Source: an uncultured Gammaproteobacteria bacterium
GTDB lineage: Bacteria > Patescibacteriota > Patescibacteriia > UBA9934
Assembly: GCA_964613815.1 (NCBI GenBank)
Contig: CAZTKG010000002.1
Coordinates: forward strand, 118,299-182,298
Direction: 5' to 3'
Length of the DNA: 64,000 bases
Part shown: one piece after another, positions 30,581 to 64,000 of the stretch
Numbering within the stretch: position 1 is the stretch's first letter
Layout of the letters: the number at the start of each line of letters is the position of its first letter
Translations under genes and position numbers: made by a program
Notes under the pieces: model-generated
Database searches by the model: none
Told to the model about the DNA's origin: nothing
The model's input: only the letters and a program-made list of their open reading frames with translations

Positions 30581-30634
30581 GGGCATGGAGTTCTTTCATA
30601 CAATTTGTCGAAATATCGGCGATCGGAGATACAA

Positions 30635-32050: not shown

Positions 32051-32118
32051 TATTCGTCGTTCTCTCGGATTTTCCGGGGGATTTTTTATTTGGATGGGCG
32101 CGCGCTTTGTGTTCTGTG

Positions 32119-32231: not shown

Positions 32232-32528
32232 CAACGGGGGAGTGGGGGATGGTTTTTTATATATATCTGACGTTCTGTGGATAGTTGTGGTTGCTGGTGG
32301 GGGCGTGGTGGGTTATAGTGGGGGCAACGAGGCACAAAGTGGGGCGCCCCGCAATTTTCGTTTGCGGAGCTCGAGTCGTAAGACTCCATGTTCGGGAAAC
32401 TTCCCCCTGTCAGGAATTGTTGTAACGCTTACTCTCGGTGAGCATGCGCCAACGATTCGTGATAGGAATCGATCAACCGCGTGTTCTTTCCTTTGCGCGA
32501 CGTTAGCCGTTAAGGCGACGTTAAAACA

Positions 32529-32961: not shown

Positions 32962-32971
32962 ATTAATAGGT

Positions 32972-40509: not shown

Positions 40510-40528
40510 TGTGGTATAATCAAGTCAA

Positions 40529-41686: not shown

Positions 41687-41687
41687 T

Positions 41688-42062
41688 ATGTCTATGCCGT
41701 CAATTGCTATTGTTGCAAAAGATCAGTATTTGGCTGGTATTTATGGAAGAAAGTTTGAAAATGACGGTTGGGAAGTTGAGGTTTCGGAGAGTTTTGATGA
41801 GGGGCGACGAAAGGCTTCTCGTATGCGTCCTTCTGTAATGCTTCTTGACGTGGATTGTGTTGAGGATGCACCGAAAACAATTCGTGCGCTGAAGGCAATG
41901 CCGACGCTTTTTCGAACAAAGATTGTAGCGGTTGCACAGAATGGTTGTAGATTACAGATTGGGGCTGTGCGGGATGCGGGCGCGGAGACGTATTTGGTTT
42001 TAGGTCATTTTGTCCCGCGTGAAGCGGTTGCTAAGATGCGTAATTTGTTACAAGAATCTTGA
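41688..42062 (+). CDS. Receiver-like (CheY-fold) single-domain protein, possibly degenerate (PilH-like position)
   Basis: 124 aa with a (beta-alpha)5-like pattern and VMLLDVD at the phospho-acceptor position, but it lacks the canonical N-terminal DD pair. Confidence 0.4.
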   Translation: MSMPSIAIVAKDQYLAGIYGRKFENDGWEVEVSESFDEGRRKASRMRPSVMLLDVDCVEDAPKTIRALKAMPTLFRTKIVAVAQNGCRLQIGAVRDAGAETYLVLGHFVPREAVAKMRNLLQES

Positions 42063-42065
42063 TGT

Positions 42066-42575
42066 ATGTTTGATCAAAAAGGGGTTTCAAAAATTGAATT
42101 ATTGGTGATTGTCGGGATCGTGGGTCTTTTAGGTGTTCTTGCAATGTATGCCGTTTTATATGCGCGTTCTCAGGCGCGAGATGCAGTGAGACTTAGTGAC
42201 GTGCGTCAAGTTCAGGCTGCTCTAGAGGTGTACTTTAATACGTTGAATTCTTATCCAGAAACGGAAGAGGTTTTGCCGCTTGGGCATTCCGCGAGTCGAT
42301 GTTTGGATGATGGAGGATTTGGATCTAGTTGTCCGGATGATTCAGTGACTTTTATGTCCATTGTTCCATCTATGCCTTCTACTGGTCTTGATGGAGAAGT
42401 TGTATGCGGCGGTGTGACAAATAGTTACTGTTATTATGGTAGCAGTATTCAATATTTTGTTGAGTTTGAACTTGAGCGAGATAATATTTTGATTGGGCTT
42501 GTAGAAGGAGTGAATTGTGCGACAGAAAATGGAGTGAAGGCAGGTGCTTGTCAGGTTAATATGGATTCTCTCTAG
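42066..42575 (+). CDS. Type IV pilin-like protein (prepilin N-terminal cleavage/methylation motif)
   Basis: QKG|VSKIELLVIVGIVGLL has the cleavage Gly, Glu at +5 and a hydrophobic helix. The C-terminal domain has Cys pairs. Confidence 0.6.
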   Translation: MFDQKGVSKIELLVIVGIVGLLGVLAMYAVLYARSQARDAVRLSDVRQVQAALEVYFNTLNSYPETEEVLPLGHSASRCLDDGGFGSSCPDDSVTFMSIVPSMPSTGLDGEVVCGGVTNSYCYYGSSIQYFVEFELERDNILIGLVEGVNCATENGVKAGACQVNMDSL

Positions 42576-42576
42576 T

Positions 42577-43368
42577 ATGTCGGTCATTTGGATGGCGCTT
42601 TTGGTTGGATTTGCTGGTGTGTTAATGGGGAGTTTTGTGAATGCTGTTATTTTCCGTTCGCAAAGTAAGGAATCGCTTTGGAGTCGGAGCAAGTGTCGGT
42701 CTTGCGCGGTTCCAATTCATCCAAAAGATTTGGTTCCTATTGTTAGTTATTTTGCTTTGAAGCGACGATGCAGGTCTTGTAAGGCGGAGATTGAATGGCA
42801 ATATCCTGTTATTGAGTTGGCCATGGGGGTCATGTTTGCGCTTTTGTATGCGCGGGTGATGTTTGGCGTTGGTATTCCTGATTTTGTTGATGACGGAGAA
42901 TTGTTTGTGCTTCTTTTGCGAGATTTGATTGCAGCGGTTTTTTTGGTCATTATTTTTGTTATTGATTTAAAATACTCGGTGATTTTGGATCGATTTAGCA
43001 TTCCTGCGCTTTTGTTTGCGCTTTTGTTGAATGTGCATTTGGGTGCTGATCCGGCGATGCTGTTGCTTGCGGGGCTTTTGATTGGAGGTTTTTTCGCGTT
43101 TCAATATATTGTTTCCAAGGGGGCATGGATTGGGGGAGGCGATGTTCGGATGGGGATGTTTATGGGATGTTTGCTTGGTGTCTGGCATGGTGTATTGGCA
43201 CTTTTTTTGGCTTACGTTATAGGGGCTATTGTCGGCTTGGTTTTGATTGCTAGGCATCGAAAGAGTTTGAAGAGTCATATTCCTTTTGGAACATTTTTGG
43301 CATTCACGACGTTTATTGTGATGATTTGGGGAGAGGATTTGTTGATTTGGTATCTGGGGCTGATTTAG
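42577..43368 (+). CDS. pilD: Prepilin peptidase (A24 family)
   Basis: Zinc-binding CRSC...CRSC tetrad and the catalytic Asp motifs (GGGDVRMG). Confidence 0.8.
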   Translation: MSVIWMALLVGFAGVLMGSFVNAVIFRSQSKESLWSRSKCRSCAVPIHPKDLVPIVSYFALKRRCRSCKAEIEWQYPVIELAMGVMFALLYARVMFGVGIPDFVDDGELFVLLLRDLIAAVFLVIIFVIDLKYSVILDRFSIPALLFALLLNVHLGADPAMLLLAGLLIGGFFAFQYIVSKGAWIGGGDVRMGMFMGCLLGVWHGVLALFLAYVIGAIVGLVLIARHRKSLKSHIPFGTFLAFTTFIVMIWGEDLLIWYLGLI

Positions 43369-50065: not shown

Positions 50066-50254
50066 ATGAAAAAGAAAAAGGTTGAGGATACATTTGGTTA
50101 TAAGGGGTGGATGAATTCGGATAATATTTGGAAGCGGATGTTTGGGGTGTTTGGGTATTATACGCTTGCGAATATTGTGATTACGCTTGGGATGCTTTTG
50201 GTGTTTGGAGTGTTTGTGTTTTTAGGGTTTTTGGTGACTTGGTTGGTTCGGTAG
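50066..50254 (+). CDS. Small membrane protein (62 aa)
   Basis: Lys-rich N-terminus then two TM helices. Followed by a bidirectional terminator. Confidence 0.3.
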   Translation: MKKKKVEDTFGYKGWMNSDNIWKRMFGVFGYYTLANIVITLGMLLVFGVFVFLGFLVTWLVR

Positions 50255-50270
50255 ATTTGATTTTTATTTG

Positions 50271-50297
50271 GTTTCAAAAAAGAGCTTCAAAGCTCTT
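50271..50297. terminator. Bidirectional terminator AAAAAAGAGCTTCAAAGCTCTTTTTTG
   Basis: Perfect hairpin flanked by A- and T-runs. It marks the left edge of the AT-rich island. Confidence 0.75.
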
Positions 50298-50602
50298 TTT
50301 TGTGCTGCCGAGATCAGCTATGTGCCGGGAGGGTCGAGTTGAGCTCGATTGCCTCGCTCAGCAGTTTTCGGTTGGAAGATCTGCGAAGCTCAGCTTCGCT
50401 AGACACCGATCTTCAAACCGAGCTGAGCTCGGTGGCGGACCGGACGGGTTGAGTAACAAGGTTTGGGAGGTTTTGTAAGGGCTTTTGGGATATTATTTCT
50501 AGACGAATTTCAGGCACTCGGGTCGGGGTCTTTTTTGGGAACTTGAGACAAAATGAGACAGTAGTTAAAAAAATGGGGGGCTAAATCATAAAATCACGGC
50601 TT

Positions 50603-51109
50603 ATGAAAATTCCCAAAGACCTAGTTCAAGAACTTAAGGATATTCATCAAGAAAAGACAGGTAAAACGTTGAGTAATGAAGACGCGCTTGAGGGAGCAAA
50701 CAACTTAACCAATTTCGCCAAGCTTCTACTGGACTGTGCTGAGCGCGATCGTAAACGTAAACTGCAGCTCAAAGAGTCGCCAAAGGGTTTCCATCTTCCC
50801 GAAGGAGAACGTTACAATTGTTTCATTTGCCACAATGTAGTTTCAGGAGAATCAAGTTGGTACAGCAAGCACGGGATCACGTGTCTTATTTGCAAGGAAG
50901 CTTTGAGGAAGCGAGTCATTCCAGTGAGTGTCATGCGCAATCGTGATAGCTGGTTAGCGATGTGGGAAGTGAAGAAGCTTCTTGTACTACACCACTCCAC
51001 CATACTAAAAATGATCCGCACTGGTAAACTAAAGGCGCGGATCATTAAAAATGGAGAGCGTGATTACTTTTGGGTGTTTTTGAAGAAAGAGAATCGTCTA
51101 CTCACCTAA
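50603..51109 (+). CDS. Zn-ribbon (CxxC...CxxC) protein with C-terminal HTH-like segment (possible excisionase/MerR-like regulator)
   Basis: CFICHN...CLICKE zinc ribbon. [17 protein letters not shown] resembles a MerR/Xis-type HTH. The gene is AT-rich. Confidence 0.4.
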
Positions 51110-52306
51110 GTCGGCGTCACCATCTGAAAGTTCTTCAAACTTAGCTGTCATTGTAGGATTGCCTCGTGTCAATTTTTTAATCGTCAGATCTTCCGCCTTA
51201 TTATTGGCGAGACGCAGGTTGTTTTCAGAAGACAGGAGGGCCGCCTTAGTCTTTTGAAGATGATTGATTGTTTTATCGATTTCATCAATGGCAGTTTTGA
51301 ATCTACGACTCGCAAGATCGTAGTTTTTTGCGAACCCTTCCTTAAAGACGTTTATCCGATCTTCAAAATTTGTAATGTCCACATTTTGGCTTCGCATCAA
51401 AGCAAGTTCTGCTTTGTATTCGAGAGAGTTCATTGCGGCGTTGCGGAGCAGTGTAATCATCGGAATAAAGAATTGCGGACGAACTACGTACATCTTAGGG
51501 TATTTATGAGACACGTCGACAATACCTGTGTTATACAGTTCATTTTCGGTCTCCAAGAGCGTTACCAGAACAGCATATTCACAATTTTTCTCTGTGCGGT
51601 CTTTATCAAGCTCACGTAAAAAGTCTTCGTTCTTTTTCTTTGTGGCAGTTTCATCGCCTTCATTTTTCATTTCGAACATGATAGAAGTAATTTCATTCCC
51701 AGCTTCGTCGGTTTCCCGATAAATGTAATCGCCCTTACTTCCGGTTTTGGAATCATTATCCTTTTCAAAATATGCATTTTGAAAAGCAGTTGCACGGAGT
51801 TTGTTGAACTCAGTTTCACAATGCTGTTCCAGGGTCTCCCCAAGCATTTTGGTGCTGAGTTTTAATTTCATGTCCTTGTAACGCTCAATCATTTCATCCT
51901 TTGACTTTAATTCATTTTCATACTTTTCCTTCATAGAAACTTCGCGCAGCTCCATTTCATGCTCCTTGCTTTGCAACTTATTCTTGAGATGGTCTCGTTC
52001 TTTTTCGATGGAATTAACTGCCTCTGTTACGGCGAGTTTTTTCTCAAGAGCCTCACTCTCCATTTTTGACTTGAGAGAAGCTATCTCGGAGTCTTTTTTT
52101 ACAAGGTCTTCCTGCATTGAATTCTTTAGATTGGCCTCAGCGAGTTTCACGGCATCTTCTTGCTGTCTCTCGGCTAAAGATAGGCGATCATGCAGTTCTT
52201 TTTCAAACTGATCGTCACGAACTTGTTTGAGAATATCCGCGAACCCAGCTTCATCTACTTTGAAAGTCTTTTTACAGTGCGGGCAATTGATGGTTTGGTC
52301 GGTCAT
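51098..52306 (-). CDS. DUF2130-like protein: N-terminal Zn-ribbon (CPHC), long coiled coil, C-terminal globular domain
   Basis: [19 protein letters not shown]... then a ~200-aa coiled coil and a C-terminal KGDYIYRE...[12 protein letters not shown] segment, consistent with the DUF2130 architecture. Confidence 0.5.
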
Positions 52307-52399
52307 ACAGGGTTTGGTTTATTGGTTAGAAACTTGACGCATCTCTTGTTTATGGTAATATCACGTTCAGATATAAGTGTCAAACTCTGAATAAGAAAT

Positions 52400-53281
52400 A
52401 TGCAATCAATACCCTCTCAGGATCAAGCTTTGCTCAATCTGGGCAAAATCAACGGCTGGATTGACTCCTCACCTGTCGCAACCGTCATGCGCCATTCTAT
52501 GGCAAATTTAGCATTTGAGCTTACAAAAGCAGATCTTCAAGTAGAAATCGACATTGGTAACCTGCTTTCAATCTCTGATTCTCCAATTACATCAAAACGA
52601 TTCAAGAAAGTCTTTCTCGATCCTCTTGTGGGAAATGATTATGCTGTGGTCTTACAAAAAGTCCATCAACAAATATTCGCACAGAGTGAAGGGTATCAAT
52701 TTCAACCAGGGCAATTGCGATCGGAGAATACCCCTGGACAAATACAGGGCATTATTAACAAAATTGATGAGAGCAGTGATTCTCCATTCGCAAAGGCCCT
52801 AGATCTTCATAAGAATTTTCTAGACCTAAAACCATTTAATAACGGAAATGAAATCATTGCAGCTCTGCTACCAAATATATACCTAACTCATCGAGGTGTA
52901 ATGCTTGCGCCCATACTAAGCTTTCATAATTTCCCTGCACAAGGCGATGATGCAGATGAGTGGTTTCAAGACCAAACAAATCTTATCATCACTCTCTTGC
53001 ACGAAATTCGAGATTTGGAGCAAGAATACAAAAGTCGAACTAATGGATTTGCAACACAGCGTAAAAAACTTTTCTCAGGACTTTTGCCTTTTATGATGAA
53101 ACGTCCGAAGTTTACGATTCAAGAATTACTGGATGAATATGGACAAAGTACATATCAAACCATTAATGAACTATTCAAAGATCTGGTAAAGCTCAATGTG
53201 CTAAAGGAGCTTACGGGAAATGCGCGGTTCAGAGTCTTTCACCTTCACGAATATTCAAATCTTTTCAAAACAATCGTATGA
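52400..53281 (+). CDS. Fic/DOC-family-like protein with degenerate active-site motif (KPFNNGNE in place of HPFx[DE]GNGR)
   Basis: Fido-like length and helical pattern, with the motif-like segment LDLKPFNNGNEIIAALL. It sits just upstream of hsdM, a position frequently occupied by Fic genes in Type I R-M loci. Confidence 0.45.
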   Translation: MQSIPSQDQALLNLGKINGWIDSSPVATVMRHSMANLAFELTKADLQVEIDIGNLLSISDSPITSKRFKKVFLDPLVGNDYAVVLQKVHQQIFAQSEGYQFQPGQLRSENTPGQIQGIINKIDESSDSPFAKALDLHKNFLDLKPFNNGNEIIAALLPNIYLTHRGVMLAPILSFHNFPAQGDDADEWFQDQTNLIITLLHEIRDLEQEYKSRTNGFATQRKKLFSGLLPFMMKRPKFTIQELLDEYGQSTYQTINELFKDLVKLNVLKELTGNARFRVFHLHEYSNLFKTIV

Positions 53282-55317
53282 CAAATTTCAAAGATAAGAC
53301 TCAGCTCATTTGGAGTATTGCAGATATTCTCCGTGGTGGATGGAAGCAACATGAGTATCAAGATGTCATTCTTCCTCTTGTTGTTATCAAGCGTTTAGAT
53401 CTCCTCCTCTCCTCAACAAAGAAGTCTGTGCTCGAGCAATATAACGAGCTAAGTGGAGAGATTAATGACCTTGATCCAATTCTCAAGGCAACATCTGGAG
53501 TCGGTTTTTATAATATCTCTGAATATGACTTTGAGTCACTTCTTGAAGACCCTGCTGGCATTGCACAGAACTTTAGAAATTATTTAAACAAGTTTAGTGA
53601 AAATATTACTGACATTATTGAGAAGTTTGATTTTGATCGTCAGCTAGATCGTCTTGATGGAGGAAATCTCTTGTATGAAATTATAAAGGTCATAAATAAA
53701 GTTGACCTTCATCCGGATCGTGTAGACAATCATGAGATGGGGTCCATCTTTGAGGAGCTTATTAGAAAATTTGCGGAACAATCGAATGAGACCGCTGGGG
53801 AGCATTACACGCCACGCGATGTGATTAAAGTCATGGTCGAAGTTCTCTTCGCACCAGACCAAAAAAAACTCCAAAAAGAACATCTTATTAAAACCGTCTA
53901 CGATTGTGCTTGTGGTACTGGTGGGATGCTCTCTGTTGCAAAGGATCACATAAAAGATGAGATTAAAAGTGATGCAGACATCTACCTTTACGGACAAGAG
54001 CTCAACCCTGTCACCTACGCTATGTGTAAGGCGGACATGCTGATTAAGGGTGAGGACCCGAATAATATTAAAGGTGGAGAAAAAGATCATTCACTGGCAA
54101 GCACACTTGCAAATGATCAGTTTTTTGGAAAGGACTTTGACTATATGCTTACAAACCCTCCTTTTGGAGTGGATTGGAAAAAAGACAAGCAAACTGTTGA
54201 GCGAGAGGCTGAACGTGGATTTGCTGGGCGTTTTGGTGCGGGGACACCGCGTGTATCAGATGGACAATTGCTTTTTCTACAACATCTTATTTCAAAAATG
54301 AGACCAGAACATGATGGTGGGTCGCGCTTAGGAATTGTTTTTAATGGCTCACCACTATTTACTGGTGATGCAGGAAGCGGAGAGAGTGAAATTCGTAGAT
54401 GGATTTTAGAGAACGATTGGCTTGAAACAATAATCGCGCTTCCTGATCAGCTATTTTTCAACACAGGTATCCCAACATACCTTTGGTTTATTACGAACCG
54501 AAAATCAGATGAGCGTAAAGGTAAGGTGCAGATTGTAGACGCTCGAGGCTTCTGTAAAAAAATACGAAAGAGTCTCGGAAACAAACGTAATGAGATTACG
54601 GAAGATGATCGGAAAAAGATCATTGAACTTTATTCGTCATTTGAAGAAAATGAACACTCAAAGATTTTCAACAATGAAGACTTTGGATACCGACAGATCA
54701 CCGTGGAACGACCTCTTCGATTGAACTTTCAGGTAAATGAGGAGCGGTTGAAAAATCTGACCTTGGATAAATTTCTCACCACTGGTGAAAAAAAAGCAAC
54801 AAAATTACAACTACAGCGAGCTGCTATTTGTCGAATATTAACCAATGCAGTTTTACCGAAGATGTCAAAAAAACTGTACAAAAATCGTCAGGAATTTATC
54901 AGTGACCTGACCGATACATACAACTCCATTGGTGATCTAGATACTCCACTACCACAGCCGATATTAAAAGCAGTGATTGAATCACTTTCAGAACAGGATG
55001 ATACGGCAGATATTTGTATGGACAGCAAGGGCAACTCTGAAGCACATGCAAGCTTACGTGACACAGAAAATATTCCACTCGATCAAAATATTCAGGAGTA
55101 TTTCAATAAAGAAGTAAAGCCTTATGTTACGGATGCTTGGATCAATGAAAGTAAAAAAGATCACAAGGATAAAAAGATCGGGAAAGTTGGATATGAGATT
55201 CCTGTGACAAGATTTTTTTACAAATACAATACCCCAAGATCATTGAAAGATATTGAAATCGATATTCAAAAAACAGAGCAAGAGCTTGTTGATCTTCTTA
55301 AACAGATGTCTGTATGA
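53278..55317 (+). CDS. hsdM: Type I restriction-modification system, methyltransferase (M) subunit
   Basis: N-terminal HsdM domain (LIWSIADILRG), AdoMet motif I (DCACGTGGML) and motif IV NPPFG (LTNPPFGVDW). Confidence 0.9.
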   Translation: MTNFKDKTQLIWSIADILRGGWKQHEYQDVILPLVVIKRLDLLLSSTKKSVLEQYNELSGEINDLDPILKATSGVGFYNISEYDFESLLEDPAGIAQNFRNYLNKFSENITDIIEKFDFDRQLDRLDGGNLLYEIIKVINKVDLHPDRVDNHEMGSIFEELIRKFAEQSNETAGEHYTPRDVIKVMVEVLFAPDQKKLQKEHLIKTVYDCACGTGGMLSVAKDHIKDEIKSDADIYLYGQELNPVTYAMCKADMLIKGEDPNNIKGGEKDHSLASTLANDQFFGKDFDYMLTNPPFGVDWKKDKQTVEREAERGFAGRFGAGTPRVSDGQLLFLQHLISKMRPEHDGGSRLGIVFNGSPLFTGDAGSGESEIRRWILENDWLETIIALPDQLFFNTGIPTYLWFITNRKSDERKGKVQIVDARGFCKKIRKSLGNKRNEITEDDRKKIIELYSSFEENEHSKIFNNEDFGYRQITVERPLRLNFQVNEERLKNLTLDKFLTTGEKKATKLQLQRAAICRILTNAVLPKMSKKLYKNRQEFISDLTDTYNSIGDLDTPLPQPILKAVIESLSEQDDTADICMDSKGNSEAHASLRDTENIPLDQNIQEYFNKEVKPYVTDAWINESKKDHKDKKIGKVGYEIPVTRFFYKYNTPRSLKDIEIDIQKTEQELVDLLKQMSV

Positions 55318-56564
55318 ACAAACTTGAGCGATTGAAATTTTCGGTGAACATCAATCCGAGCAAAAAAGAGATTCCAAATTTACCAGATGATACAGATGTT
55401 GCCTTTTTGCCTATGGAAGCTGTTTCAACGAAGGGTAAAGTAAAGCCAGTTACACGCAGCTTGTGCGAGGTGTCACAAGGGTATACATATTTTCGAGATG
55501 GGGATGTCGTGATGGCAAAAATTACTCCTTGTTTTGAGAATGGTAAGGGTGCGGTCATACAAAAGCTTTTGAATGGATTCGGATTTGGTTCAACGGAATT
55601 TGTTGTATTCCGTCCTCAAAATATAGACACCAAGTATCTATATTACATAATTTCATCTAATCATTTTAGAAAAACGGGAAAGATGGAAATGCGTGGATCG
55701 GCAGGGCAACAGCGTGTGCCAGAAACGTTTATTTCAAATTATCTTATTGAAAAAATATCTATTAGTGAACAAAAAAAGAGGGTTAATTTTCTCGATGAGA
55801 AGACGGTGTTAATTGATGTGGTTATAAAAAAGAAACAGAAACAGATTGAGCTCCTTAAAGAAAAACGTGCTGCTCTTATTGCTCAGTCTGTTACAAAAGG
55901 ACTTAATCCGAATGTGAAGATGAAAGATTCTGGTGATGAGTGGATCGGTGAGATTCCTGAAGAATGGAAAATGCTTAAACTCAAGCAACTAACTAATCAT
56001 CCTTTTCAGTACGGTTTGAACGAATCCGCGATTGAAAACATTTCAGGTGACCCTAGATATATTCGTATTACAGATATTGATGCCGATGGGGGTTTACGAA
56101 ATTCCTCAATCAAAACCATGAGCAAGGTCAAAGCTAAAGGATATTTCTTAAAAGATGGAGATATGTTATTTGCGCGATCTGGAGCAACAGCTGGCAAATC
56201 TTTTATCTATAAGGAAAGATATGGAGCAAGTTGCTTTGCTGGATACTTAATCCGATTCATGCCAGATCGAAGAAAACTATTGCCCGATTATATTAACTTT
56301 ATCACTCAATCTACCTATTACGAGAACTGGAAGGACAGTATTTTTATTCAATCTACTATTCCAAATATTAGCGCGGACAAGTATAAGGGTTTTTTAGTCC
56401 CGGTTCCCTCAGTAGATGAACAGGAAGAAATAGTGACATATCTGAATCAGAATACCGAAATTATTGATATGACAATCAGTAAGATTCAAAAGTCGATCAA
56501 ACTAATTCAAGAATATCGTTCCTCACTAATCTCGCATGCGGTGACTGGAAAAATTGTTGTATGA
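55314..56564 (+). CDS. hsdS: Type I restriction-modification system, specificity (S) subunit
   Basis: Two target-recognition domains separated by a conserved central helix, with a C-terminal conserved repeat. Its start overlaps the hsdM stop. Confidence 0.85.
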   Translation: MNKLERLKFSVNINPSKKEIPNLPDDTDVAFLPMEAVSTKGKVKPVTRSLCEVSQGYTYFRDGDVVMAKITPCFENGKGAVIQKLLNGFGFGSTEFVVFRPQNIDTKYLYYIISSNHFRKTGKMEMRGSAGQQRVPETFISNYLIEKISISEQKKRVNFLDEKTVLIDVVIKKKQKQIELLKEKRAALIAQSVTKGLNPNVKMKDSGDEWIGEIPEEWKMLKLKQLTNHPFQYGLNESAIENISGDPRYIRITDIDADGGLRNSSIKTMSKVKAKGYFLKDGDMLFARSGATAGKSFIYKERYGASCFAGYLIRFMPDRRKLLPDYINFITQSTYYENWKDSIFIQSTIPNISADKYKGFLVPVPSVDEQEEIVTYLNQNTEIIDMTISKIQKSIKLIQEYRSSLISHAVTGKIVV

Positions 56565-58318
56565 GCTTGAGTGGTAAGAAAAATTTTTCGATCTACAAAG
56601 CCAAACAGGGTGTGGTTGATCAATTTTTGAATTCGGAAGACTCCTTAGATGATCATATTTTAGGTCTTTTAAATGAGCGGAAAGCCAAAACAAAACAATA
56701 CAGTTCGTTCGAAGTCCAACTTGATGACGATGTGCAAGAAAATTGGAGCATCTCCCTCAGTCATAGAGTGCACAGCAGTCATAGTAGCTGGAATACAATT
56801 TTACAAAGTTTAAATCAGGGCATTGATGCATTGTCACGAGATGAGCACGACTTCATTATTAGTGTTTTTAACGGTGAGGCGATTTACTTTGTTTCAGGTG
56901 GTTATGCATATAACGATTTAATCGATTTTGTAGATATCAATTTTCCTTTGGAACTTTTGAAACGAATTGTCGATCCATCTGCTATTAAGGCTGCAAAAAG
57001 TCGGGCGCTCACGGGTCAGTTTTTTGCCAAAGATTTGTACTTTCGTGGGCCGGCTTCAATCGCGGGCGTCGAGGGATTCGGTCAGGTTTGGAAGGAAGTA
57101 CATGCACGTTTGGACGAAGATTTTTTAAACGATCCTGACATTGTTTCGATTTTCGGATCCGTAAAGAAGATCAATGTTACGACAAAAGCAAATTTTCAAA
57201 TAAAGAGAAAAATTGACTTTGCTGGCTTATTGTCATTAATAGAAAAGCTACATCAGTATTTGCAAAGAGTCCTTGATCCTGATGTTAAACATTTATTCTC
57301 GTTCTTGGATGGCGTAGAACTTGTACGCAGTGGTCAGCTGAAAGCGAAACTAGCAAAACACGTTTCAGAAATCTGTTTAGATAACATGGTGAATGATACT
57401 AGATACGATTTTGATGTAAGTCATAGGAATTACGAGAAGTATTTCAGTGCTGATGTTTATGTGCTTATAAAAGATCGTTCCCGCCTACAGGAATTTCAAC
57501 ACGAGCCTACATATAATGAAATCATTGATGTTCTGAATAGCGAAGTTTCTGATTTAGAGGAACTCGGAAAAGTGAACCTAAAATCAGAACATGAGTTAGA
57601 ATATGAGGATACTTCTGGTTCTTTTAACTCACATTTACATGGAGAAATAGAACTAGAAAATCAAAAGTATTTCCTGATTGATGGAGATTATTATCGAGTG
57701 AATACTTCATTTCTGGATTTTGTAAAAAGACAATACGACACACGTATCATCAATGGCTGTTTGAGCGACCAATCTGTATTGTCGTCTCTAACATTAAATT
57801 CCGGATGGCTTGAGGCGGACTATAATGAAGGTTTCGTGAATGATTCTGGTGTCATCGTTGGTGACAGATTCCTTTACAAGAACATCGAGTTATTTGATCT
57901 GCTTGCAGCGAATCACGAAGAGAAAAAGATATATGTTTTCCAGAATAAGATTGGTATTGGAGCTGGTACAAGAGATGCTTGCTCTCAGATTAGAAATGCG
58001 GCCAACATAATTTCTCAAATGCAGGTCGAGAGGGATGATACCTCGGTGAAGGATTTGTTCTCAAAAATTTCCGTTAGTAATGTTAGTTATGCAGGAGTAA
58101 AGATCTCTGAACAAACAGGCATGCTTGGCGAGGATGACTTTGTTAATCTATTTAGAGGCGAGTACGAAATTATATATGTACTTAATTTGTTAAAAACTGA
58201 TATCGATAAGGTTAAGCAAACGGAATCAAATATCGCAAAATTTGAAATCTTGTCTTTGGAAGAGCACCTGAAAACAAAAGGAGCATCTCTCATAATATTA
58301 GCAACGAATTTAGATTGA
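56561..58318 (+). CDS. Uncharacterised 585-aa protein embedded between hsdS and hsdR (candidate R-M-associated defence/abortive-infection gene)
   Basis: Its start (ATGA) overlaps the hsdS stop and its stop overlaps the hsdR start, so it is translationally coupled. No Walker A/B, no PD-(D/E)xK or HEPN motif recognised by eye. Confidence 0.75.
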   Translation: MSLSGKKNFSIYKAKQGVVDQFLNSEDSLDDHILGLLNERKAKTKQYSSFEVQLDDDVQENWSISLSHRVHSSHSSWNTILQSLNQGIDALSRDEHDFIISVFNGEAIYFVSGGYAYNDLIDFVDINFPLELLKRIVDPSAIKAAKSRALTGQFFAKDLYFRGPASIAGVEGFGQVWKEVHARLDEDFLNDPDIVSIFGSVKKINVTTKANFQIKRKIDFAGLLSLIEKLHQYLQRVLDPDVKHLFSFLDGVELVRSGQLKAKLAKHVSEICLDNMVNDTRYDFDVSHRNYEKYFSADVYVLIKDRSRLQEFQHEPTYNEIIDVLNSEVSDLEELGKVNLKSEHELEYEDTSGSFNSHLHGEIELENQKYFLIDGDYYRVNTSFLDFVKRQYDTRIINGCLSDQSVLSSLTLNSGWLEADYNEGFVNDSGVIVGDRFLYKNIELFDLLAANHEEKKIYVFQNKIGIGAGTRDACSQIRNAANIISQMQVERDDTSVKDLFSKISVSNVSYAGVKISEQTGMLGEDDFVNLFRGEYEIIYVLNLLKTDIDKVKQTESNIAKFEILSLEEHLKTKGASLIILATNLD

Positions 58319-61272
58319 TTATGACTACTAACATAAAAGAAATTGGATTTGAGGAGTTTATTGAACAATTCCTCGTTGAGCAAAATGGATACAGATCTCG
58401 TCCAGCAAGTAAATATCTGAAGAATCTCTGCATGGATTGGGAGGCGGTTTTAGAATTTATTGAAAACACTCAATCCGAGAAATTGGATCGCTTGATGGAA
58501 ATCCATGGCGATCAGATCAATGACAAATTGTTTAATAGGTTGGATAAGGAGATTCGTGAGCGCGGGACTTTGGATGTGCTTCGTAACGGTTTTTCAGATC
58601 ATGGGCAAAATATAGATCTCGCATATTTCAAACCAAACTCTGGGATGAATCCTGACAGTCAACGTTTGTATGATGGAAATATCTTGAGTGTCATGCGGCA
58701 GGTGCATTACAGCACACAGAATGAAAACTCTATTGATATCATTTTGTTTTTGAATGGACTACCTATTTTTACAGTTGAGTTGAAAAATCAATTAACGGGA
58801 CAGACTGTAAAGAATGCGATCCAGCAATATCGTGTTGATCGTGATCAAAAAGAACCGCTACTGCAGTTTAAACGCTGTCTTGCTCACTTTGCTGTTGATA
58901 CCGAATTGGTTTATATGACCACGCAATTGCGAGGGCTTAAAACATTCTTCCTGCCATTTAATAAAGGTTATCAAAATGGTGAAGGAAATCCGCCGGTAGA
59001 AAATGGGTACAAAACGTCTTATCTTTGGGAAGATGTGTGGCGGAAGGATAGTGTTTTAGAGTTGGTAAAGAAATTCATCAATATTCAAGTAGAGATAAAG
59101 GAAGATGAGCGTGGTAGACAATACCGTGATGAAAAGCTTATCTTTCCTCGTTACCACCAACGTGACACCGTAAAACGATTGGTGGAAGGCTCACAACAGA
59201 ATGGATCAGGGCAAAATTATTTGATCCAACACAGTGCTGGGAGTGGAAAGAGTAATACAATCGCGTGGACCGCTCATAGGCTTTCCGAGCTTTATGGAGA
59301 TGATAACAAGAAAGTTTTTGACACCATTCTTGTGATCACAGATCGGCGTGTCCTTGATAAACAATTGCGGGATACGATCATTCAGTTTGAACAAGTACAA
59401 GGTGTTGTAAAACCAATAACAGAGAGTTCTTCAGAGTTAAAAGAGGCTCTTGAATCCGGAGAAAAGATCATTATTACAACGTTGCAAAAATTTCCGTTTA
59501 TCATAGATGCGATTGAATCTATTCCAGGGAGGAACTTCGCGGTACTGATTGATGAGGCACATTCTTCTCAGTCAGGTGATCAGGCAGCTCAATTGCGTGA
59601 AGTACTTCAGGTAGACAATTTGGATGACGCCGAGACTCAAGAGGAATCATTTCTTCCAGAAACAAGCGAAGACAAAGTTTTAAAGAAGCTTCGAAGTCGT
59701 AAGGTAAAAACACCGAATATAAGTTTCTTTGCGTTTACAGCTACTCCAAAGCAAAAGACACTCGAATTATTTGGAACAAAAAATCCTTTGGACGGAAAAT
59801 ATTATCCGTTTAGTTTGTATTCCATGAAGCAGGCAGTTGAAGAAGGGTTTATTTTAGATGTGCTGAAAAATTACACAACGTATAAAGCCTTCTTTAATTT
59901 ATTGAAATCAATTGAAGATGATCCTGAGTTTGAGAAAAGTAAGGCACAGAGACTTCTAGTTGGATATGTCGAAAAACACGAACATGCTATCGCAAGAAAG
60001 ACTGAAGTCATGGTAGAACATTTTCGAAATCGCATTGCAAAGCAAATTCATGGAAAGGCAAAATCAATGGTTGTAACAAAGTCACGTTTGCATGCTGTTC
60101 GTTACAAACAGGCTTTTGATAAATACTTGTCGGAGCATAATTACCCATTCAAAACACTGGTTGCATTTTCAGGGACTGTACGTGATGGTGATGAGGAGTA
60201 TACAGAAGCACAGATGAACGGTGTTTCCGATCAGGTTACTGCTGAGGAATTTAAAAAGGATGGTTATAAATTTTTGATTGTTGCGGAAAAGTTTCAGACA
60301 GGTTTCGATCAGCCATTACTCAACGCAATGTATGTGGATAAAAAATTGAGTGGTGTTGGTGCAGTTCAGACATTGGGTAGATTGAATCGATCGCGCTCCG
60401 GTAAGAATGAGGTATTTGTTTTGGACTTTGTAAATGAGATGGAAGAGATTAAGGAAGCTTTCCAGCCCTACCACATCACAACTGTGCTTTCTGAGGGGAC
60501 AGATCCAAACCTGTTACATGACCTAGAGAGAGATCTTTATGCCTACAAACTTTTCACCCAGCATGAGGTGGCTGGATTTGTAAGTGATTTTTTACGTGGT
60601 GCTGGACCTGACAAAATCAATTCGGTACTAGATGTTGTAGTTGATAGGTTTTTGGATGAAGCAACAGAAGTTCAGAATGATTTTAAAAAGAAATGTAAGG
60701 AGTTCGTACGTCGGTATGCATTTGCTTCACAGATCATTCCGTTTGAAAGCACTGAACTGGAAAAATTATTCATGTTCACAAAGTTGCTTTCAAAAAAATT
60801 ACCTAGGTCAAAAGAAGAATTGCCAATTGAGGTTTTGGAGAGTGTTGATATTGAATCATATAAATTACTCGAACAAACAAAAGGGACCATTAAATTGGAT
60901 TCAGAAGATGGTGAACTTGAACCAATGCAGAGTGGCGATACGCAAAAAAAACTTGAAGAAAAGGAATCGCTGTCGACTATTGTAAAAGAAATAAACGACA
61001 GATTTGGGACAGAGTTTACCTCAAAAGATGTTGTAATAATTAATCAGTTGGGTGAGCGACTTGTTGAAGATGCGTCATTGCAGGGATCTATAAAAACAAA
61101 TTCAATTGACACTGCAAAGATAAAATTTGATCAAGTCTTGCAAACAGAGTTGGTGGGTATGTTGAAACAACACATGGACTTCTATAAAAAGCTGGATAAG
61201 AACCCTGAGCTCAAGTCATATTTTGGAGACAGGATGTATAGTCATGTACGTAAAGAGGTTGTCAAAAATTAG
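58315..61272 (+). CDS. hsdR: Type I restriction enzyme, restriction (R) subunit
   Basis: N-terminal nuclease region, SF2 helicase motifs (GSGKSNT Walker A, DEAH-like DEAH at VLIDEAHSSQ, QTLGRLNR motif VI) and a C-terminal helical domain. Confidence 0.9.
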   Translation: MIMTTNIKEIGFEEFIEQFLVEQNGYRSRPASKYLKNLCMDWEAVLEFIENTQSEKLDRLMEIHGDQINDKLFNRLDKEIRERGTLDVLRNGFSDHGQNIDLAYFKPNSGMNPDSQRLYDGNILSVMRQVHYSTQNENSIDIILFLNGLPIFTVELKNQLTGQTVKNAIQQYRVDRDQKEPLLQFKRCLAHFAVDTELVYMTTQLRGLKTFFLPFNKGYQNGEGNPPVENGYKTSYLWEDVWRKDSVLELVKKFINIQVEIKEDERGRQYRDEKLIFPRYHQRDTVKRLVEGSQQNGSGQNYLIQHSAGSGKSNTIAWTAHRLSELYGDDNKKVFDTILVITDRRVLDKQLRDTIIQFEQVQGVVKPITESSSELKEALESGEKIIITTLQKFPFIIDAIESIPGRNFAVLIDEAHSSQSGDQAAQLREVLQVDNLDDAETQEESFLPETSEDKVLKKLRSRKVKTPNISFFAFTATPKQKTLELFGTKNPLDGKYYPFSLYSMKQAVEEGFILDVLKNYTTYKAFFNLLKSIEDDPEFEKSKAQRLLVGYVEKHEHAIARKTEVMVEHFRNRIAKQIHGKAKSMVVTKSRLHAVRYKQAFDKYLSEHNYPFKTLVAFSGTVRDGDEEYTEAQMNGVSDQVTAEEFKKDGYKFLIVAEKFQTGFDQPLLNAMYVDKKLSGVGAVQTLGRLNRSRSGKNEVFVLDFVNEMEEIKEAFQPYHITTVLSEGTDPNLLHDLERDLYAYKLFTQHEVAGFVSDFLRGAGPDKINSVLDVVVDRFLDEATEVQNDFKKKCKEFVRRYAFASQIIPFESTELEKLFMFTKLLSKKLPRSKEELPIEVLESVDIESYKLLEQTKGTIKLDSEDGELEPMQSGDTQKKLEEKESLSTIVKEINDRFGTEFTSKDVVIINQLGERLVEDASLQGSIKTNSIDTAKIKFDQVLQTELVGMLKQHMDFYKKLDKNPELKSYFGDRMYSHVRKEVVKN

Positions 61273-61281
61273 CCGCTGTCT

Positions 61282-61956
61282 ATGTTGAAAAGTACCGAAC
61301 ACATCCTCAGGGAAGCATCTGAAAATTTTGCCAAATCCATAGCACAAATACAGGAGCCTTTTAAGAAATTTGAAAGAACCATTGCATCATTTACAGAACC
61401 TATTCGAAAATTTGAGGAGCAAATAAAGCAACAACAAGATGCATTTGCTCAAATGAATAAATTTTTGGCCGCTGTTGATCTACCCAAAATAGTCGCTAGC
61501 GACATATTAGATGCATGGGCTGTTCAAGGCGTAGATATTGATGAATATGTTGAAAACTCTGCTGAGCTTGCAGAAGATTTGAGTTACGATTTTGCTGAAT
61601 CTCTTGAGGAGGTCATTGAAAAGCATTCAAAAGAAACTGGCACCACTCAAATTCGACTTACCTCCAATGGAAGAATGTTTCATATTGATTCCCCTGATAA
61701 GGACCATGAACTATCTGAACAAATGGAAAAATTCTTTCGTGCACTGAAGAAAGGGTTTACTGCAACAGACAAACTTGTCACTGTGAGCGGCTATGCGACT
61801 GAGCGCAGTCTACGAACTGCGGCCAATAAGTTGAATCGTTTAGGTCGCGGAAAATTAGGTTTGAGCGTTCCGATTGCCGTTGGTAAGCGAGGAAAGGGCT
61901 ACAGATTGGGGAGGCGTATTCATGTTCATAGGTTACCAAACAAGCTCGATAGATAG
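61282..61956 (+). CDS. Hypothetical protein (224 aa) downstream of hsdR
   Basis: Clean ORF with a basic C-terminal tail (GRGKLGLSVPIAVGKRGKGYRLGRR). Followed by a strong terminator. Confidence 0.45.
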   Translation: MLKSTEHILREASENFAKSIAQIQEPFKKFERTIASFTEPIRKFEEQIKQQQDAFAQMNKFLAAVDLPKIVASDILDAWAVQGVDIDEYVENSAELAEDLSYDFAESLEEVIEKHSKETGTTQIRLTSNGRMFHIDSPDKDHELSEQMEKFFRALKKGFTATDKLVTVSGYATERSLRTAANKLNRLGRGKLGLSVPIAVGKRGKGYRLGRRIHVHRLPNKLDR

Positions 61957-61972
61957 ATACAGTGGATAACTA

Positions 61973-62007
61973 ACAAAAAATCACCTAACTTTAGGTGATT
62001 TTTTGTT
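61973..62007 (+). terminator. Rho-independent terminator AAAAAATCACCTAACTTTAGGTGATTTTTTG
   Basis: Perfect hairpin with T-run. Confidence 0.8.
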
Positions 62008-62089
62008 AGCGAGACTAGATGGGTGCTGTATGTCCGATGTACGAGACTAAATGGGATGATTCCTTTGTAAATCACTTAAAACAAGGAAT

Positions 62090-63361
62090 ATGTCCACAGA
62101 GATTTCAATTCAATACATCAGCATTGATGTTCTTAAATCGGCAGAGTACAACCCTCGTTCTTGGGATGAACATGCGAAAGAGAAACTTAAAGCAAGTATC
62201 AAACAGCACGGATTCTGCGATCCGATTATTGTGAACGGCTCATCAGAACGGAAGAACATTATTATTGGTGGACACTTTCGAACCGAGTGTGCACGCGAGC
62301 TAGGATTCACGGAAGTCCCCGTTGTATACGTCAACCTCACTCTTGAACAAGAAAAGGCGCTCAACCTTCGTCTTAACAGAACGGGTGGAGAATGGAACTT
62401 CGAGATGCTAAAAGAATTCGATATTGGCTTGCTTTTGGATGTCGGATTTGATGATCAAGACCTCTCAAACATCTGGGATGACATCCTACCTATTGAAGAT
62501 GATGACTTTAATGTCGAGGAGACCGTTAACGACACAAGAGAACCCACCACCCAACCTGGCGATCTGTTTCAGCTCGGGAATCACCGTCTTCTCTGTTCAG
62601 ATTCGACAGACATTGAATCAGTAAAACGTCTCGTTGGAAACCAGAGGATCGACATGATCTTCTGCGACCCTCCGTACAACATTGGGTTCAGTTATAAAAA
62701 TGGACTTACAACAAAAGGAAAATACGGAGGCAAGATAGACGATTCAAAAACAGATGAGGATTATCGGAAATTCATTCAATCCACCATGGTCAACGCTCTT
62801 GCAGTGACGAAGTCTGATTCACACGTCTTCTATTGGTGTGATCAGAAATATATCGGACTCATGCAATCTCTGTACGAGGATCTCGGTGTTGTAAACAGAC
62901 GTGTGTGTCTATGGATCAAAAATAATTTCAACATGACGCCACAGGTTGCGTTCAACAAAGCATACGAGCCCTGTGTCTACGGCACGGTCGGTTCACCGTA
63001 TCTCAATCCGGATGTGACGAATTTGCATGAAATTACCAACAAAGAAGTTGCTTCGGGCAATCGGTGCCTTGATGACATTATTGATCTGTTTGACATCTGG
63101 TTAGCGAAACGCGATAGCGCCAATGAGTACCAACACCCTACGCAAAAGCCCTTAACGCTCTGTGAGAAGCCCCTAAGGCGTTGCACAAAACCTGGAGACA
63201 ACGTCCTGGACTTGTTCGGGGGTAGCGGTAGTGTGTTGCTGGCTTGTGAACAGATGAAGCGTCGAGCATTTATATGTGAGTGTGATCCAGTTTTTTGTGA
63301 CGTAATCCTGCGCCGCTTCGAAGAAATGACCGGTATCAAGGCTAAGAAAATAAATGACTAA
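62090..63361 (+). CDS. ParB-like nuclease domain fused to a DNA methyltransferase (N6-adenine/N4-cytosine, beta-class)
   Basis: N-terminal ParB/Srx-like domain (IIVNG...IIGGHFR). The methyltransferase domain has a DPPY motif (IFCDPPYNIGF) and AdoMet motif I (LDLFGGSGSVLLA). Confidence 0.8.
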   Translation: MSTEISIQYISIDVLKSAEYNPRSWDEHAKEKLKASIKQHGFCDPIIVNGSSERKNIIIGGHFRTECARELGFTEVPVVYVNLTLEQEKALNLRLNRTGGEWNFEMLKEFDIGLLLDVGFDDQDLSNIWDDILPIEDDDFNVEETVNDTREPTTQPGDLFQLGNHRLLCSDSTDIESVKRLVGNQRIDMIFCDPPYNIGFSYKNGLTTKGKYGGKIDDSKTDEDYRKFIQSTMVNALAVTKSDSHVFYWCDQKYIGLMQSLYEDLGVVNRRVCLWIKNNFNMTPQVAFNKAYEPCVYGTVGSPYLNPDVTNLHEITNKEVASGNRCLDDIIDLFDIWLAKRDSANEYQHPTQKPLTLCEKPLRRCTKPGDNVLDLFGGSGSVLLACEQMKRRAFICECDPVFCDVILRRFEEMTGIKAKKIND

Positions 63362-63362
63362 T

Positions 63363-64000
63363 ATGGAAATTCAAACTGGCGACATTATAAAACTTGGGGA
63401 TCACTTACTCCTCTGTGGAAGCGCCGCAGACAAAGTCCAAGTCGAGCGATTGCTTTCTGGTCGTGCTATCAATCTGATCCTTACAGACCCTCCGTACGGT
63501 GTAGCGTACGTTGAAAGCAAAGAAGGGTTCACTCAATCAATAGCTAAACTAAAAGTGATTAAGGGCGATGAAATTCAAACGGAAGCAAACTACAGATCCT
63601 TCACCTGTGCGTGGCTCACGCATGCACAGCCATTCATGGCAAAGAAGAATTCTGTTTACATCTTCAATTCGGACAAGATGATCTTTGCCCTGCGTGAGGG
63701 TATGCAACAGGCTGGGTTCAGATTTACGCAACTACTTATCTGGGCAAAGACTCACGCGGTCATTGGGCGGATGGACTACTTACCTCAGCATGAGCTCATT
63801 GCGTATGGCTGGTATGGAACGCATAAGTTTCATAAGTCTAAAGACAAATCAGTGCTGGTGTATCCCAAACCAAATAAATCAAAATTCCATCCCACGACCA
63901 AACCCATTGGACTCCTTCGGCGCATGATCCTCAATAGCTCAAAGGTTGGTGACACGGTCTACGATCCATTTGGAGGATCTGGGTCAACTCTTCTGGCATG
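63363..64000 (+). CDS. DNA methyltransferase (DPPY-type), paralogous to the methyltransferase domain of the upstream gene; 3' end beyond window
   Basis: LILTDPPYGVAY (motif IV) and DPFGGSGSTLLA (motif I). Its N-terminus (KLGDHLLLCGSA) parallels QLGNHRLLCSDS of the previous gene. The ORF runs off the window end. Confidence 0.75.
   Translation, partial: MEIQTGDIIKLGDHLLLCGSAADKVQVERLLSGRAINLILTDPPYGVAYVESKEGFTQSIAKLKVIKGDEIQTEANYRSFTCAWLTHAQPFMAKKNSVYIFNSDKMIFALREGMQQAGFRFTQLLIWAKTHAVIGRMDYLPQHELIAYGWYGTHKFHKSKDKSVLVYPKPNKSKFHPTTKPIGLLRRMILNSSKVGDTVYDPFGGSGSTLLA

Follow-up and report, generated by a model that had tools for sequence, protein, structure and literature searches.

A defence-carrying island beside a tRNA gene of an Uhrbacteria-like bacterium points to a family of integrative elements with a DNA-packaging motor and no capsid genes

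Does a block of foreign-looking DNA that combines restriction genes with paired DNA methyltransferases represent the wreck of a mobile element or a working one? This question is raised by a stretch of 64,000 nucleotides (contig CAZTKG010000002.1, positions 118,299 to 182,298 of the forward strand; hereafter the window) from an ultra-small marine Uhrbacteria-like bacterium of the candidate phyla radiation (CPR/Patescibacteria), the last part of which, from about 50.3 kb, an earlier note on the same DNA had taken for a horizontally acquired defence island or mobile-element remnant. We find that the acquired island stands, while "remnant" is probably the wrong word, because dozens of loci share this capsid-less core, with its genes intact wherever they were compared. 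For this window alone the outcome is well supported and fairly ordinary, namely a foreign, defence-carrying island beside a tRNA gene. Beyond this we propose, at a probability of roughly one half, that the block forms the left-hand two thirds of a ~19-kb foreign, satellite-like integrative element, which would use its own terminase to package its DNA into the capsids of helper phages and which carries defence genes as cargo. What the data show are the foreign composition, the absence from relatives, the tRNA-adjacent site, the gene content, the recurrence of the core, a separate clade of the large terminase subunit (TerL), purifying selection and preserved catalytic residues; the wider result on the family draws on comparative evidence only.

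A foreign block between udk and tRNA-Ser(GGA)

The composition of the window breaks at the edge of the island. From 1 to 50 kb the GC content is 0.42-0.56 (mostly ~0.50) and the GC skew +0.17 to +0.55 (mostly +0.4 to +0.5), whereas from 51 kb to the window end the corresponding ranges are 0.37-0.45 and -0.06 to +0.19. The base fractions are A.205, C.149, G.347 and T.299 in the host DNA (1-50000), as against A.317, C.181, G.216 and T.285 in the island (50600-64000). At third codon positions host genes on the + strand have G.41-.58, T.32-.42 and C.01-.06, and those on the - strand are their mirror image (C.33-.68, A.19-.46), which means that the host bias is tied to the DNA strand, whichever way a gene points. 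Island genes on both strands lack this asymmetry (A.23-.34, T.28-.37, G.16-.25, C.12-.28), and third-position G+T on the + strand accordingly drops from ~90% in the host to ~50% in the island. The switch from the host regime to unskewed, AT-rich DNA lies at ~50.3-50.6 kb. The earlier note had placed a change from G+T-rich to AT-rich coding at this very point, and a profile along the window yields an extreme break there rather than uniform statistics; the "A-ending codons" that it attributed to the island turn out to be A/T-ending codons without strand bias.

The strand asymmetry of the host is an unusually strong, lineage-specific mutational bias. It is seen both in 1-50250 of the window and on the far side of the island (17600-21272 of L002; L numbers refer to the loci compared), and in the relatives L006 and L079 the skew is weak (~0.1). 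Two patches of the left flank, 6000-11000 and 40000-43000, have a GC content of 0.42-0.46 and nevertheless a host-like skew of +0.28 to +0.40, unlike the island, and are probably native or long-resident DNA; the first contains a 700-aa open reading frame (ORF) on the - strand (7445-9547) without a Pfam family and the second type IV pilus genes. Elsewhere, at 19000-23000 and 30000-33000, the skew falls to +0.17 to +0.24 with GC up to 0.53-0.56; these stretches encode, among others, DUF2617 (- strand), a response-regulator-like protein and MraZ.

The island continues past the window. The exact sequence of its ParB-methyltransferase is present on 14 contigs, all with one context, of which we compared three (L001-L003, from one Joint Genome Institute and two European Nucleotide Archive assemblies). 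These match the window from 52090 to its end without a mismatch and are identical to each other over 21,272 bases, across the right junction into host-like DNA; the left junction, between udk and the first island genes, is covered by L004 and L005. As three independent assemblies are identical across the right junction, the island is not an assembly chimera. The earlier note had advised looking beyond the window end for an integrase, and this proved fruitful: a large serine recombinase (LSR), both terminase subunits and a tRNA gene are found there. The features of the island and of its right flank, identified by profile searches with Pfam, PADLOC, PHROGs and NCBIfam (E-values in brackets), are as follows; positions after 64000 are window-equivalents, that is, L002 coordinates plus 52089.

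50603..51109, + strand: 168-aa Zn-ribbon protein with four cysteines (CFIC at residue 73, CLIC at 94) and a weak HTH_17 match
51098..52306, - strand: DUF2130 coiled-coil protein, cargo (Pfam DUF2130 7.6e-90)
52400..53281, + strand: Fic-like protein (Pfam Fic 1.2e-6; PADLOC SoFic 1.2e-13, C-terminal part only)
53278..55317, + strand: hsdM, methyltransferase of a Type I restriction-modification (R-M) system (HsdM_N and N6_Mtase; PADLOC MTase_I 2.6e-270, residues 2-677/679)
55314..56564, + strand: hsdS, specificity subunit (Methylase_S; PADLOC Specificity_I 7.6e-92, residues 4-416/416)
56561..58318, + strand: DUF6119/TIGR04141 protein, between hsdS and hsdR (Pfam DUF6119 9.2e-22; TIGR04141 4e-16)
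58315..61272 (called start 58321), + strand: hsdR, restriction subunit of 985 aa (HSDR_N, SWI2_SNF2, ResIII and T1R_D3-like; PADLOC REase_I 8.8e-37)
61282..61956, + strand: 224-aa protein, first gene of the conserved core, adjoining the packaging operon upstream
61957..62089, + strand: conserved intergenic region with a terminator-like hairpin and, after it, ~70 nt that are conserved in L073 and L072
62090..63361, + strand: fusion of ParB_N (CTPase fold) with a beta-class DPPY DNA methyltransferase (DPPY at residue 193), core gene
63363..64000, running on to 64109 (248 aa), + strand: second DPPY DNA methyltransferase (N6_N4_Mtase; PADLOC MTase_II 2.8e-60)
64106-64555, + strand: TerS-like small terminase subunit (phrog_309 1.3e-10)
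64533-66020, + strand: TerL (phrog_38 4.5e-84)
66075-66899, - strand: GIY-YIG/DUF4357 protein (PADLOC PDC-S14 2.3e-82)
67071-68375, + strand: LSR of 434 aa (phrog_95 5.5e-56)
68381-69400, - strand: DUF4917 sirtuin-like protein (PADLOC PDC-S21 6.8e-98)
69557-69644, - strand: tRNA-Ser(GGA), followed by host-like DNA

The island thus runs ~5.5 kb past the window end and measures ~19 kb, of which the window holds the left two thirds, and its right end lies between 69401 and 69556. The skew is +0.23-0.25 by ~17.5-19 kb of L002 and again +0.38 to +0.47 from ~18.5 kb. All genes that the earlier note had listed (Zn-ribbon/HTH, DUF2130, degenerate Fic, Type I R-M with an embedded gene, a hypothetical and tandem DPPY methyltransferases) are present with the domains that it gave them. 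Searches of Pfam, PHROGs and NCBIfam match none of the 15 island ORFs to a portal, capsid, tail or lysis family. The LSR combines Resolvase, Recombinase and Zn_ribbon domains with the catalytic motifs YARKSSE and DRLSR, and resembles the solved SPbeta integrase as well as CcrB, its best match among the NCBIfam models (4.4e-34; 118 bits vs an equivalog cut-off of 900).

Relatives point to the insertion site. The udk gene (uridine-kinase-like) of the left flank is nearest to those of a metagenome-assembled genome (56%) and Candidatus Uhrbacteria (54%), and its other named homologues are from Patescibacteria. The earlier note had called for a comparison with related genomes. In three relatives, all distant (L006, L079 and a 617-kb contig; udk 56-59% identical), the left flank has the same order, RecJ-RNaseH-PilM...prepilin peptidase-LigA-GatC-GatA-Lgt-DsbA-udk, and is followed beyond udk by ordinary host genes, so that the block is missing at the syntenic position. 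Only 53 bp separate udk of L079 from the orthologous tRNA-Ser(GGA) gene upstream of it, which is oriented relative to udk as it is here (the three tRNA genes compared have a mean column identity of 94%, and their 3' 31 nt are identical). Because the two genes are so close there, the simplest reading is that ~19 kb have been inserted between the 3' end of tRNA-Ser(GGA) and udk. The tRNA-Ser(GGA) of L006 (8393-8480), also next to udk, is inverted relative to that of L079 (9860-9947) and of this genome, and the far-side genes vary among the relatives; the tRNA neighbourhood has therefore also been rearranged and is a hotspot of rearrangement. Four other loci of the element family described below (L096, L100, L107, L116), and possibly L072, likewise have a tRNA gene on the LSR side in the same orientation.

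The recurrent terminase and recombinase core

Homologues of TerL number more than 3,600 at E<=1e-20; the few that are named belong to Patescibacteria or Parcubacteria, and many are on contigs of 100-590 kb. We sampled six further chromosomal contexts (L072, L073, L076, L082, L163, L164; TerL identity 54-88%), in which a ~200-260-aa gene (not seen in L082) is followed by the ParB-methyltransferase, TerS and TerL, with the second methyltransferase present in some. An LSR lies 0-6.5 kb downstream in four of these six, and the seven chromosomal contexts, this island included, are free of structural genes within 10 kb. A profile scan of IMG/VR added 80 loci, and after clustering of all ORFs the 85 loci with a TerL relative fell into 41 of a group A, 42 of a group B and 2 unassigned.

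Group A, which includes this island, has a methyltransferase in 41/41 loci, a TerS of type c2 in 38/41, an LSR in 35/41 (the six exceptions being mostly truncated contigs) and a portal in 0/41. In the 42 loci of group B a different TerS type (c5) is followed by TerL, portal (1.5e-111), protease, major capsid, adaptor and tail genes, and 17 of them have a homologous methyltransferase; judged by this gene content they are ordinary tailed phages. A neighbour-joining tree of TerL separates the two groups cleanly into clades, with the TerL of the island grouping with L072, L073 and L082 within clade A, apart from all 42 portal-linked TerL proteins. Identity among the group A TerL proteins goes down to 38%, and they nevertheless form one clade apart from phage TerL. 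The order in the island, ParB/methyltransferase - TerS (c2) - TerL - LSR without a portal, is the exact group A layout. A scan of 107 non-core genes that neighbour TerL on its downstream side, from 34 non-redundant group A loci, turned up no recurrent structural PHROG among the 25 most frequent PHROG families; it gave helicases, methyltransferases, Sie-like proteins and, from diversity-generating retroelements (DGRs), the reverse transcriptase and Avd.

Where compared, the core genes are intact. Across 38 homologues TerL shows no variation in its Walker A/B residues or in the acidic residues of the nuclease, and its profile matches the solved terminases 4bij and 8dgc. Between group A pairs, dN/dS is 0.01-0.21 for TerL, TerS, the methyltransferases and the LSR where synonymous sites are unsaturated; often they are saturated, with dN low. 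In all pairs compared these proteins align over their full length, and the comparison argues that the group A core genes are under purifying selection. Taken together, the comparative data suggest a recurrent, selectively maintained type of element that has a full DNA-packaging motor and an integrase and no capsid. The family is large and apparently undescribed.

The backbone of the element consists of the ~224-aa protein, the ParB-methyltransferase, the second methyltransferase, TerS, TerL and the LSR, and the cargo around it is exchangeable: in this island it comprises the Type I R-M system with its embedded DUF6119 gene, the dead Fic/SoFic-like gene, DUF2130, PDC-S14 and PDC-S21. Across group A, hsdM is found in 11/41 loci and hsdR in 9/41, and members also carry MmeI-type R-M, Shedu, HerA/NurA/DruA, DGRs or RHS toxins. 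Between this element and L072 the packaging module is 81-89% identical at the amino-acid level and the LSR only 50%. The smallest gene run seen in a relative is ~6 kb (L072 6589-12612).

The following steps are inferred by analogy with phage satellites, from excision and dependence on a helper to packaging, as are the functions assigned to the methyltransferases and to the 168-aa and 224-aa proteins. The LSR would integrate and excise the element. On infection by a helper tailed phage, the TerS and TerL of the element would recognise and cut its DNA and pump it into the procapsids of the helper, the two methyltransferases having pre-methylated it against restriction in the next host. Between transfers the cargo would protect the host cell, and hence the element. 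Phages like those of group B are the obvious candidates for the helper.

Several observations weigh against this proposal. The island has no replication gene, which most described satellites possess: primase, helicase and rep domains are absent from all its ORFs in Pfam, PHROGs and NCBIfam. No helper phage was found. The absence of structural genes covers the 64 kb of the window and ~9 kb more of a 579-kb scaffold. The chromosomal loci L163 and L164 have no LSR within 10 kb downstream of TerL, and therefore the terminase cassette can exist without one. One singleton "tail protein" match turned up in the neighbour scan. Most group A loci come from IMG/VR, which picks contigs by viral hallmarks, and many of these are short. 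The nearest relatives are only 56-62% identical in udk, and at this distance the insertion is undatable and its junctions are not fixable to the base; metagenome and genome scans gave no relative closer than 56% in udk, and a protein search none closer than 62%. A strain-level empty site was not found, an exact look-up of udk returning island-bearing contigs only. Direct and inverted alignment of the left border (50250-50650) with the right border (L002 17250-17620) gave no attachment (att) repeat, the score of 19 being that of shuffled sequences (mean 18.6-18.7), although an undetectable repeat is expected for LSRs, whose crossover core is very short. Finally, no circular or excised form and no terminal redundancy was seen among 83 loci.

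Some further features of the family deserve mention. Four group A loci (L086, L087, L088, L113) have two tandem TerL genes of ~520-560 aa each that belong to different TerL sub-clades. One 55-kb contig (IMGVR_UViG_3300032737_000190) carries two distinct group A elements (L085, L108) ~25 kb apart, each with methyltransferases, TerS, TerL and LSR. About half of the IMG/VR contigs recovered with the TerL profile (L070, L084-L117, L126, L161, L162) are group A and have no virion gene. DGRs (reverse transcriptase plus bAvd) recur as cargo between the LSR and the element end (L072 14273-15668; L085, L094, L095). A scan of viral contigs with the LSR alone gave no relative. A GGGTCG motif was considered as a shared core near the element ends and rejected, as it is not enriched (8 intergenic matches in group A vs 19 in group B).

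Other readings of the terminase cassette

The alternative that survives best, although we consider it unlikely, is that the LSR moves a carrier of the staphylococcal cassette chromosome (SCC) type in which the ParB-methyltransferase/TerS/TerL cassette is one more piece of cargo, serving the cell or acting against phages, for instance by cutting or sequestering phage DNA or blocking procapsids. The cassette is always embedded among defence genes and occurs without a nearby LSR in L163 and L164; the LSR resembles the Ccr recombinases, and SCC elements themselves lack transfer genes; LSR and cassette also differ in history (50% vs 81-89% identity). Set against this, TerL and TerS are not known defence proteins as far as PADLOC goes, no model of which matches either, the LSR is linked in 35/41 loci with exceptions that are mostly truncated, and a complete TerS and TerL pair with a conserved nuclease is the standard packaging motor. 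In satellites of the SaPI type (Staphylococcus aureus pathogenicity islands), interference with the phage and self-packaging coexist and are not mutually exclusive.

Improbable in our view is a decayed prophage, in which a temperate phage integrated by its LSR beside tRNA-Ser would have lost its structural, lysis and replication genes, leaving the rest inert among accumulating defence genes. Such a history would account for the methyltransferase-TerS-TerL order, with which the structural operon of the related true phages begins (a homologous methyltransferase in 17/42 group B loci), and for the failure to find replication genes, att repeats and circular forms. It is hard to reconcile with a reduced layout shared by 41 loci whose TerL proteins diverge to 38% identity and still form one clade apart from phage TerL, with full-length alignment in every compared pair at dN/dS of 0.01-0.21 and often saturated synonymous sites, or with invariant catalytic residues; moreover, independent decay would not halt at one gene boundary each time.

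More improbable again is a dispersed system akin to a gene transfer agent, or a split prophage, whose head and tail genes lie elsewhere in the genome and are completed by the terminase module of the island. The ~73 kb inspected of the 579-kb scaffold are compatible with it, and a cassette that is widespread in one phylum and under purifying selection is what a domesticated function would look like. However, the cassette travels with an integrase and variable cargo and has a foreign composition here, which fits a mobile element and not a domesticated locus; it is also absent from this site in three relatives, and the seven chromosomal contexts show no structural gene within 10 kb.

Native DNA with a local shift in composition, or a chimera of assembly or binning, deserves next to no credence, since nothing was found in its favour beyond the low-GC patches at 6-11 kb and 40-43 kb, which keep the host GC skew (+0.28 to +0.40) that the island lacks, whereas host-like DNA resumes on the far side, three assemblies are identical over 21 kb at the right junction, L004 and L005 span the left one and relatives lack the block.

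Element ends, cargo and known systems

The left end of the element lies between 50303 and ~50432. Four features mark the passage from host to island.

50066..50254, + strand: last host-like gene of the left flank, a 62-aa small membrane ORF, also a called gene on the same contig (L004 9721-9909)
50275..50302, no strand: inverted repeat CAAAAAAGAGCTT/AAGCTCTTTTTTG with perfect 13 nt arms and flanking A and T runs
50301..50440, no strand: hairpin-rich, C-rich segment, a predicted three-way junction between the host terminator and the conserved element end
50430..50602, + strand: conserved left-end sequence of the element family (conserved part 50430-50575), adjoining the first island gene

The 62-aa ORF is outside the island and marks the host side of the border; positions 50200-50249 are 90% G+T with 4% C, as in the host. 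The inverted repeat looks like a bidirectional terminator that ends the host flank; a consensus terminator scan made no call at 50275-50302 because the loop is too short (2 nt). The 140 nt of 50301-50440 fold with a minimum free energy of -73.5 kcal/mol (z -3.35 on the + strand, -3.97 on the - strand) and have a C fraction of 0.20-0.28 vs 0.04-0.14 in the host flank, with no credible match in Rfam (best 22.9 bits vs a gathering score of 115). A small RNA, a structure at a recombination site and a repeat element are all conceivable for this segment, which could belong to either host or element. The border had earlier been described as a bidirectional terminator next to a palindrome-rich segment: the repeat and the strong fold are there, and the terminator is the part that the scan leaves uncalled.

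The left-end sequence matches two other members of the family over ~135 nt (50430-50575) in nhmmer searches (L092 45-258, 1.8e-7; L085 1157-1289, 6.5e-4), and both copies also sit at an element edge. It contains a direct repeat, GAGACA-N4-GAGACA, at 50545-50560, of a type (GAGACA-N3/4-GAGACA) that is confined to group A loci, and a promoter scan places a promoter-like site at 50565-50594, directly upstream of the first island gene. No consensus RNA structure is supported (-5.6 kcal/mol). The segment 50430-50602 is probably a protein-binding end, an operator or an att arm. The string TGGCGGACCGGACGGGTTGAG at 50436-50456 resembles the reverse complement of the 3' end of tRNA-Ser, TGGCGGAGAGGACAGGATTCGAA, at the other end of the island, and similar strings occur at the left ends of L092 and L085 (TTGGCGG...ACGGGTT.AGTA.CA and TTGGCTGG). 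This tRNA-3'-end-like string (TGGCGGA...GGAC.GG at 50436) is not significant alone against shuffles, but is conserved across elements.

The first island gene encodes the 168-aa protein, whose HTH_17 match (a helix-turn-helix of the excisionase type) has a Pfam E of 0.006, under the curated cut-off. It has homologues in four other family loci (L085, L108, L161, L162; cluster 24) and may act as a regulator or as a recombination directionality factor. The 224-aa protein (61282-61956) matches no Pfam family above the cut-off. A jackhmmer search places homologues in the corresponding position of L073, L095, L072, L092 and L109, and in roughly half of the family loci this position is taken by a gene of ~130-390 aa on the same strand. 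Its C-terminus (...GKGYRL) is winged-helix-like by eye, and it looks like a DNA-binding protein. The intergenic region downstream of it (61957-62089) matches L073 at 1.2e-10 in nhmmer and is a candidate promoter or control region of the packaging operon. The ParB-methyltransferase matches ParB_N (8.5e-11), N6_N4_Mtase (3.4e-30) and phrog_498 (3.9e-102), and is 28% identical to the second methyltransferase (E 2e-31). Fusions of this type are enriched in phages and prophages (10.1101/2025.10.10.680097).

With HsdM, HsdS and HsdR all present at full length, the Type I R-M system is complete. In the Fic-like protein, by contrast, the catalytic motif is lost: the protein is degenerate, because residues 144-155, where HxFx(D/E)GNGRxxR is expected, read KPFNNGNEIIAA, and the NCBIfam SoFic model gives 19 bits vs a cut-off of 550. 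A DUF2130 homologue directly follows hsdR in the family locus L099 (12947-14203), which makes a second member with DUF2130 beside Type I R-M and hints at a functional link between the two. The embedded DUF6119 protein is of a rare kind (514 among 1.84 billion representatives) with the invariant residues E418, E443, D446, K463, R471, Q476 and S556. Its AlphaFold2 model (pLDDT, the predicted local distance difference test, 88.9) has a sole suggestive Foldseek match, to the CdiA-CT nuclease 4g6u_A (probability 0.95, E 0.02). The protein possibly carries a C-terminal nuclease-like domain, and a restriction-linked nuclease or abortive-infection effector is a reasonable guess. The prr locus provides a parallel, in which the Type Ic R-M system EcoprrI has the gene of the anticodon nuclease PrrC between hsdS and hsdR. 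In the island, too, a complete Type I R-M operon, here with overlapping reading frames, has an extra gene after hsdS and before hsdR; the product of this gene, DUF6119/TIGR04141, has no similarity to PrrC.

Phage satellites in general are integrated elements of ~6-20 kb with an integrase, few or no virion genes and often anti-phage cargo, and they have genes that steer packaging to their own DNA: SaPIs encode TerS, and the capsid-forming phage-inducible chromosomal islands (cf-PICIs) encode TerS and TerL. The island is similar in that it is integrated, ~19 kb long, has an LSR and lacks structural genes, with a TerS-like protein and TerL of its own as its apparent packaging genes. Group A differs from these systems in having a complete TerS and TerL pair and no capsid, where cf-PICIs have both, PICIs and SaPIs have TerS only and the PICI-like elements (PLEs) and P4 have neither. 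It also has no replication or primase module and no recognisable Stl/AlpA-type regulator, has an invariant ParB-methyltransferase core and resides in CPR hosts. To our knowledge, the phage-inducible chromosomal minimalist islands (PICMIs) are also without a replication module of their own. PLEs use a large serine recombinase (PMC9638900).

Group B phages (e.g. L120, L141, L144) share with the island a homologous TerL (33-43% identity), a methyltransferase often just upstream of TerS and the same order up to TerL. After TerL they continue with portal, protease, major capsid, adaptor and tail genes, and upstream they have replication genes (Sak4-like, O-like initiator), whereas group A has an LSR and cargo after TerL, TerS of type c2 instead of c5 and a TerL clade of its own.

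SCC elements resemble the island in being site-specific islands, in their exchangeable cargo, the lack of conjugation genes and a CcrB-like LSR. SCC integrates in rlmH via CcrAB or CcrC, and the island, in contrast, is beside tRNA-Ser, with a CcrB match far under the equivalog cut-off; we know of no SCC with a terminase or a ParB-methyltransferase core. Defence islands linked to tRNA genes have the same kind of clustering as seen here, of Type I R-M, SoFic-like, PDC-S14 and PDC-S21 genes in foreign DNA beside a tRNA gene. What sets this island apart from them is an identifiable vehicle with an unusual core of terminase and LSR.

In the literature, for CPR or elsewhere, we found no description of capsid-less elements with a terminase and a serine recombinase, within a coverage that leaves out most subscription journals. 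We therefore raise, as a tentative possibility and rather less probable than the proposal for the island itself, that the latter represents an old, phylum-wide and undescribed class of CPR/Patescibacteria elements. These would be satellites with a complete terminase and ParB-methyltransferase of phage ancestry and no shell genes, moved by LSRs to sites beside tRNA genes and serving as a main vehicle for defence systems and DGRs in these tiny genomes. Contigs flagged as viral by TerL alone, which make up about half of the IMG/VR matches here, are probably not viruses, and the family is a source of many LSR and att-site candidates. CPR bacteria account for a large share of bacterial diversity and have very small genomes, few known mobile elements or phages and a poorly understood exchange of defence genes. 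If the proposal is true, these elements would represent a new solution to capsid piracy, between the TerS-only PICIs and the capsid-forming cf-PICIs, and would account for the movement of R-M systems, Shedu, DGRs and candidate defence genes between CPR bacteria.

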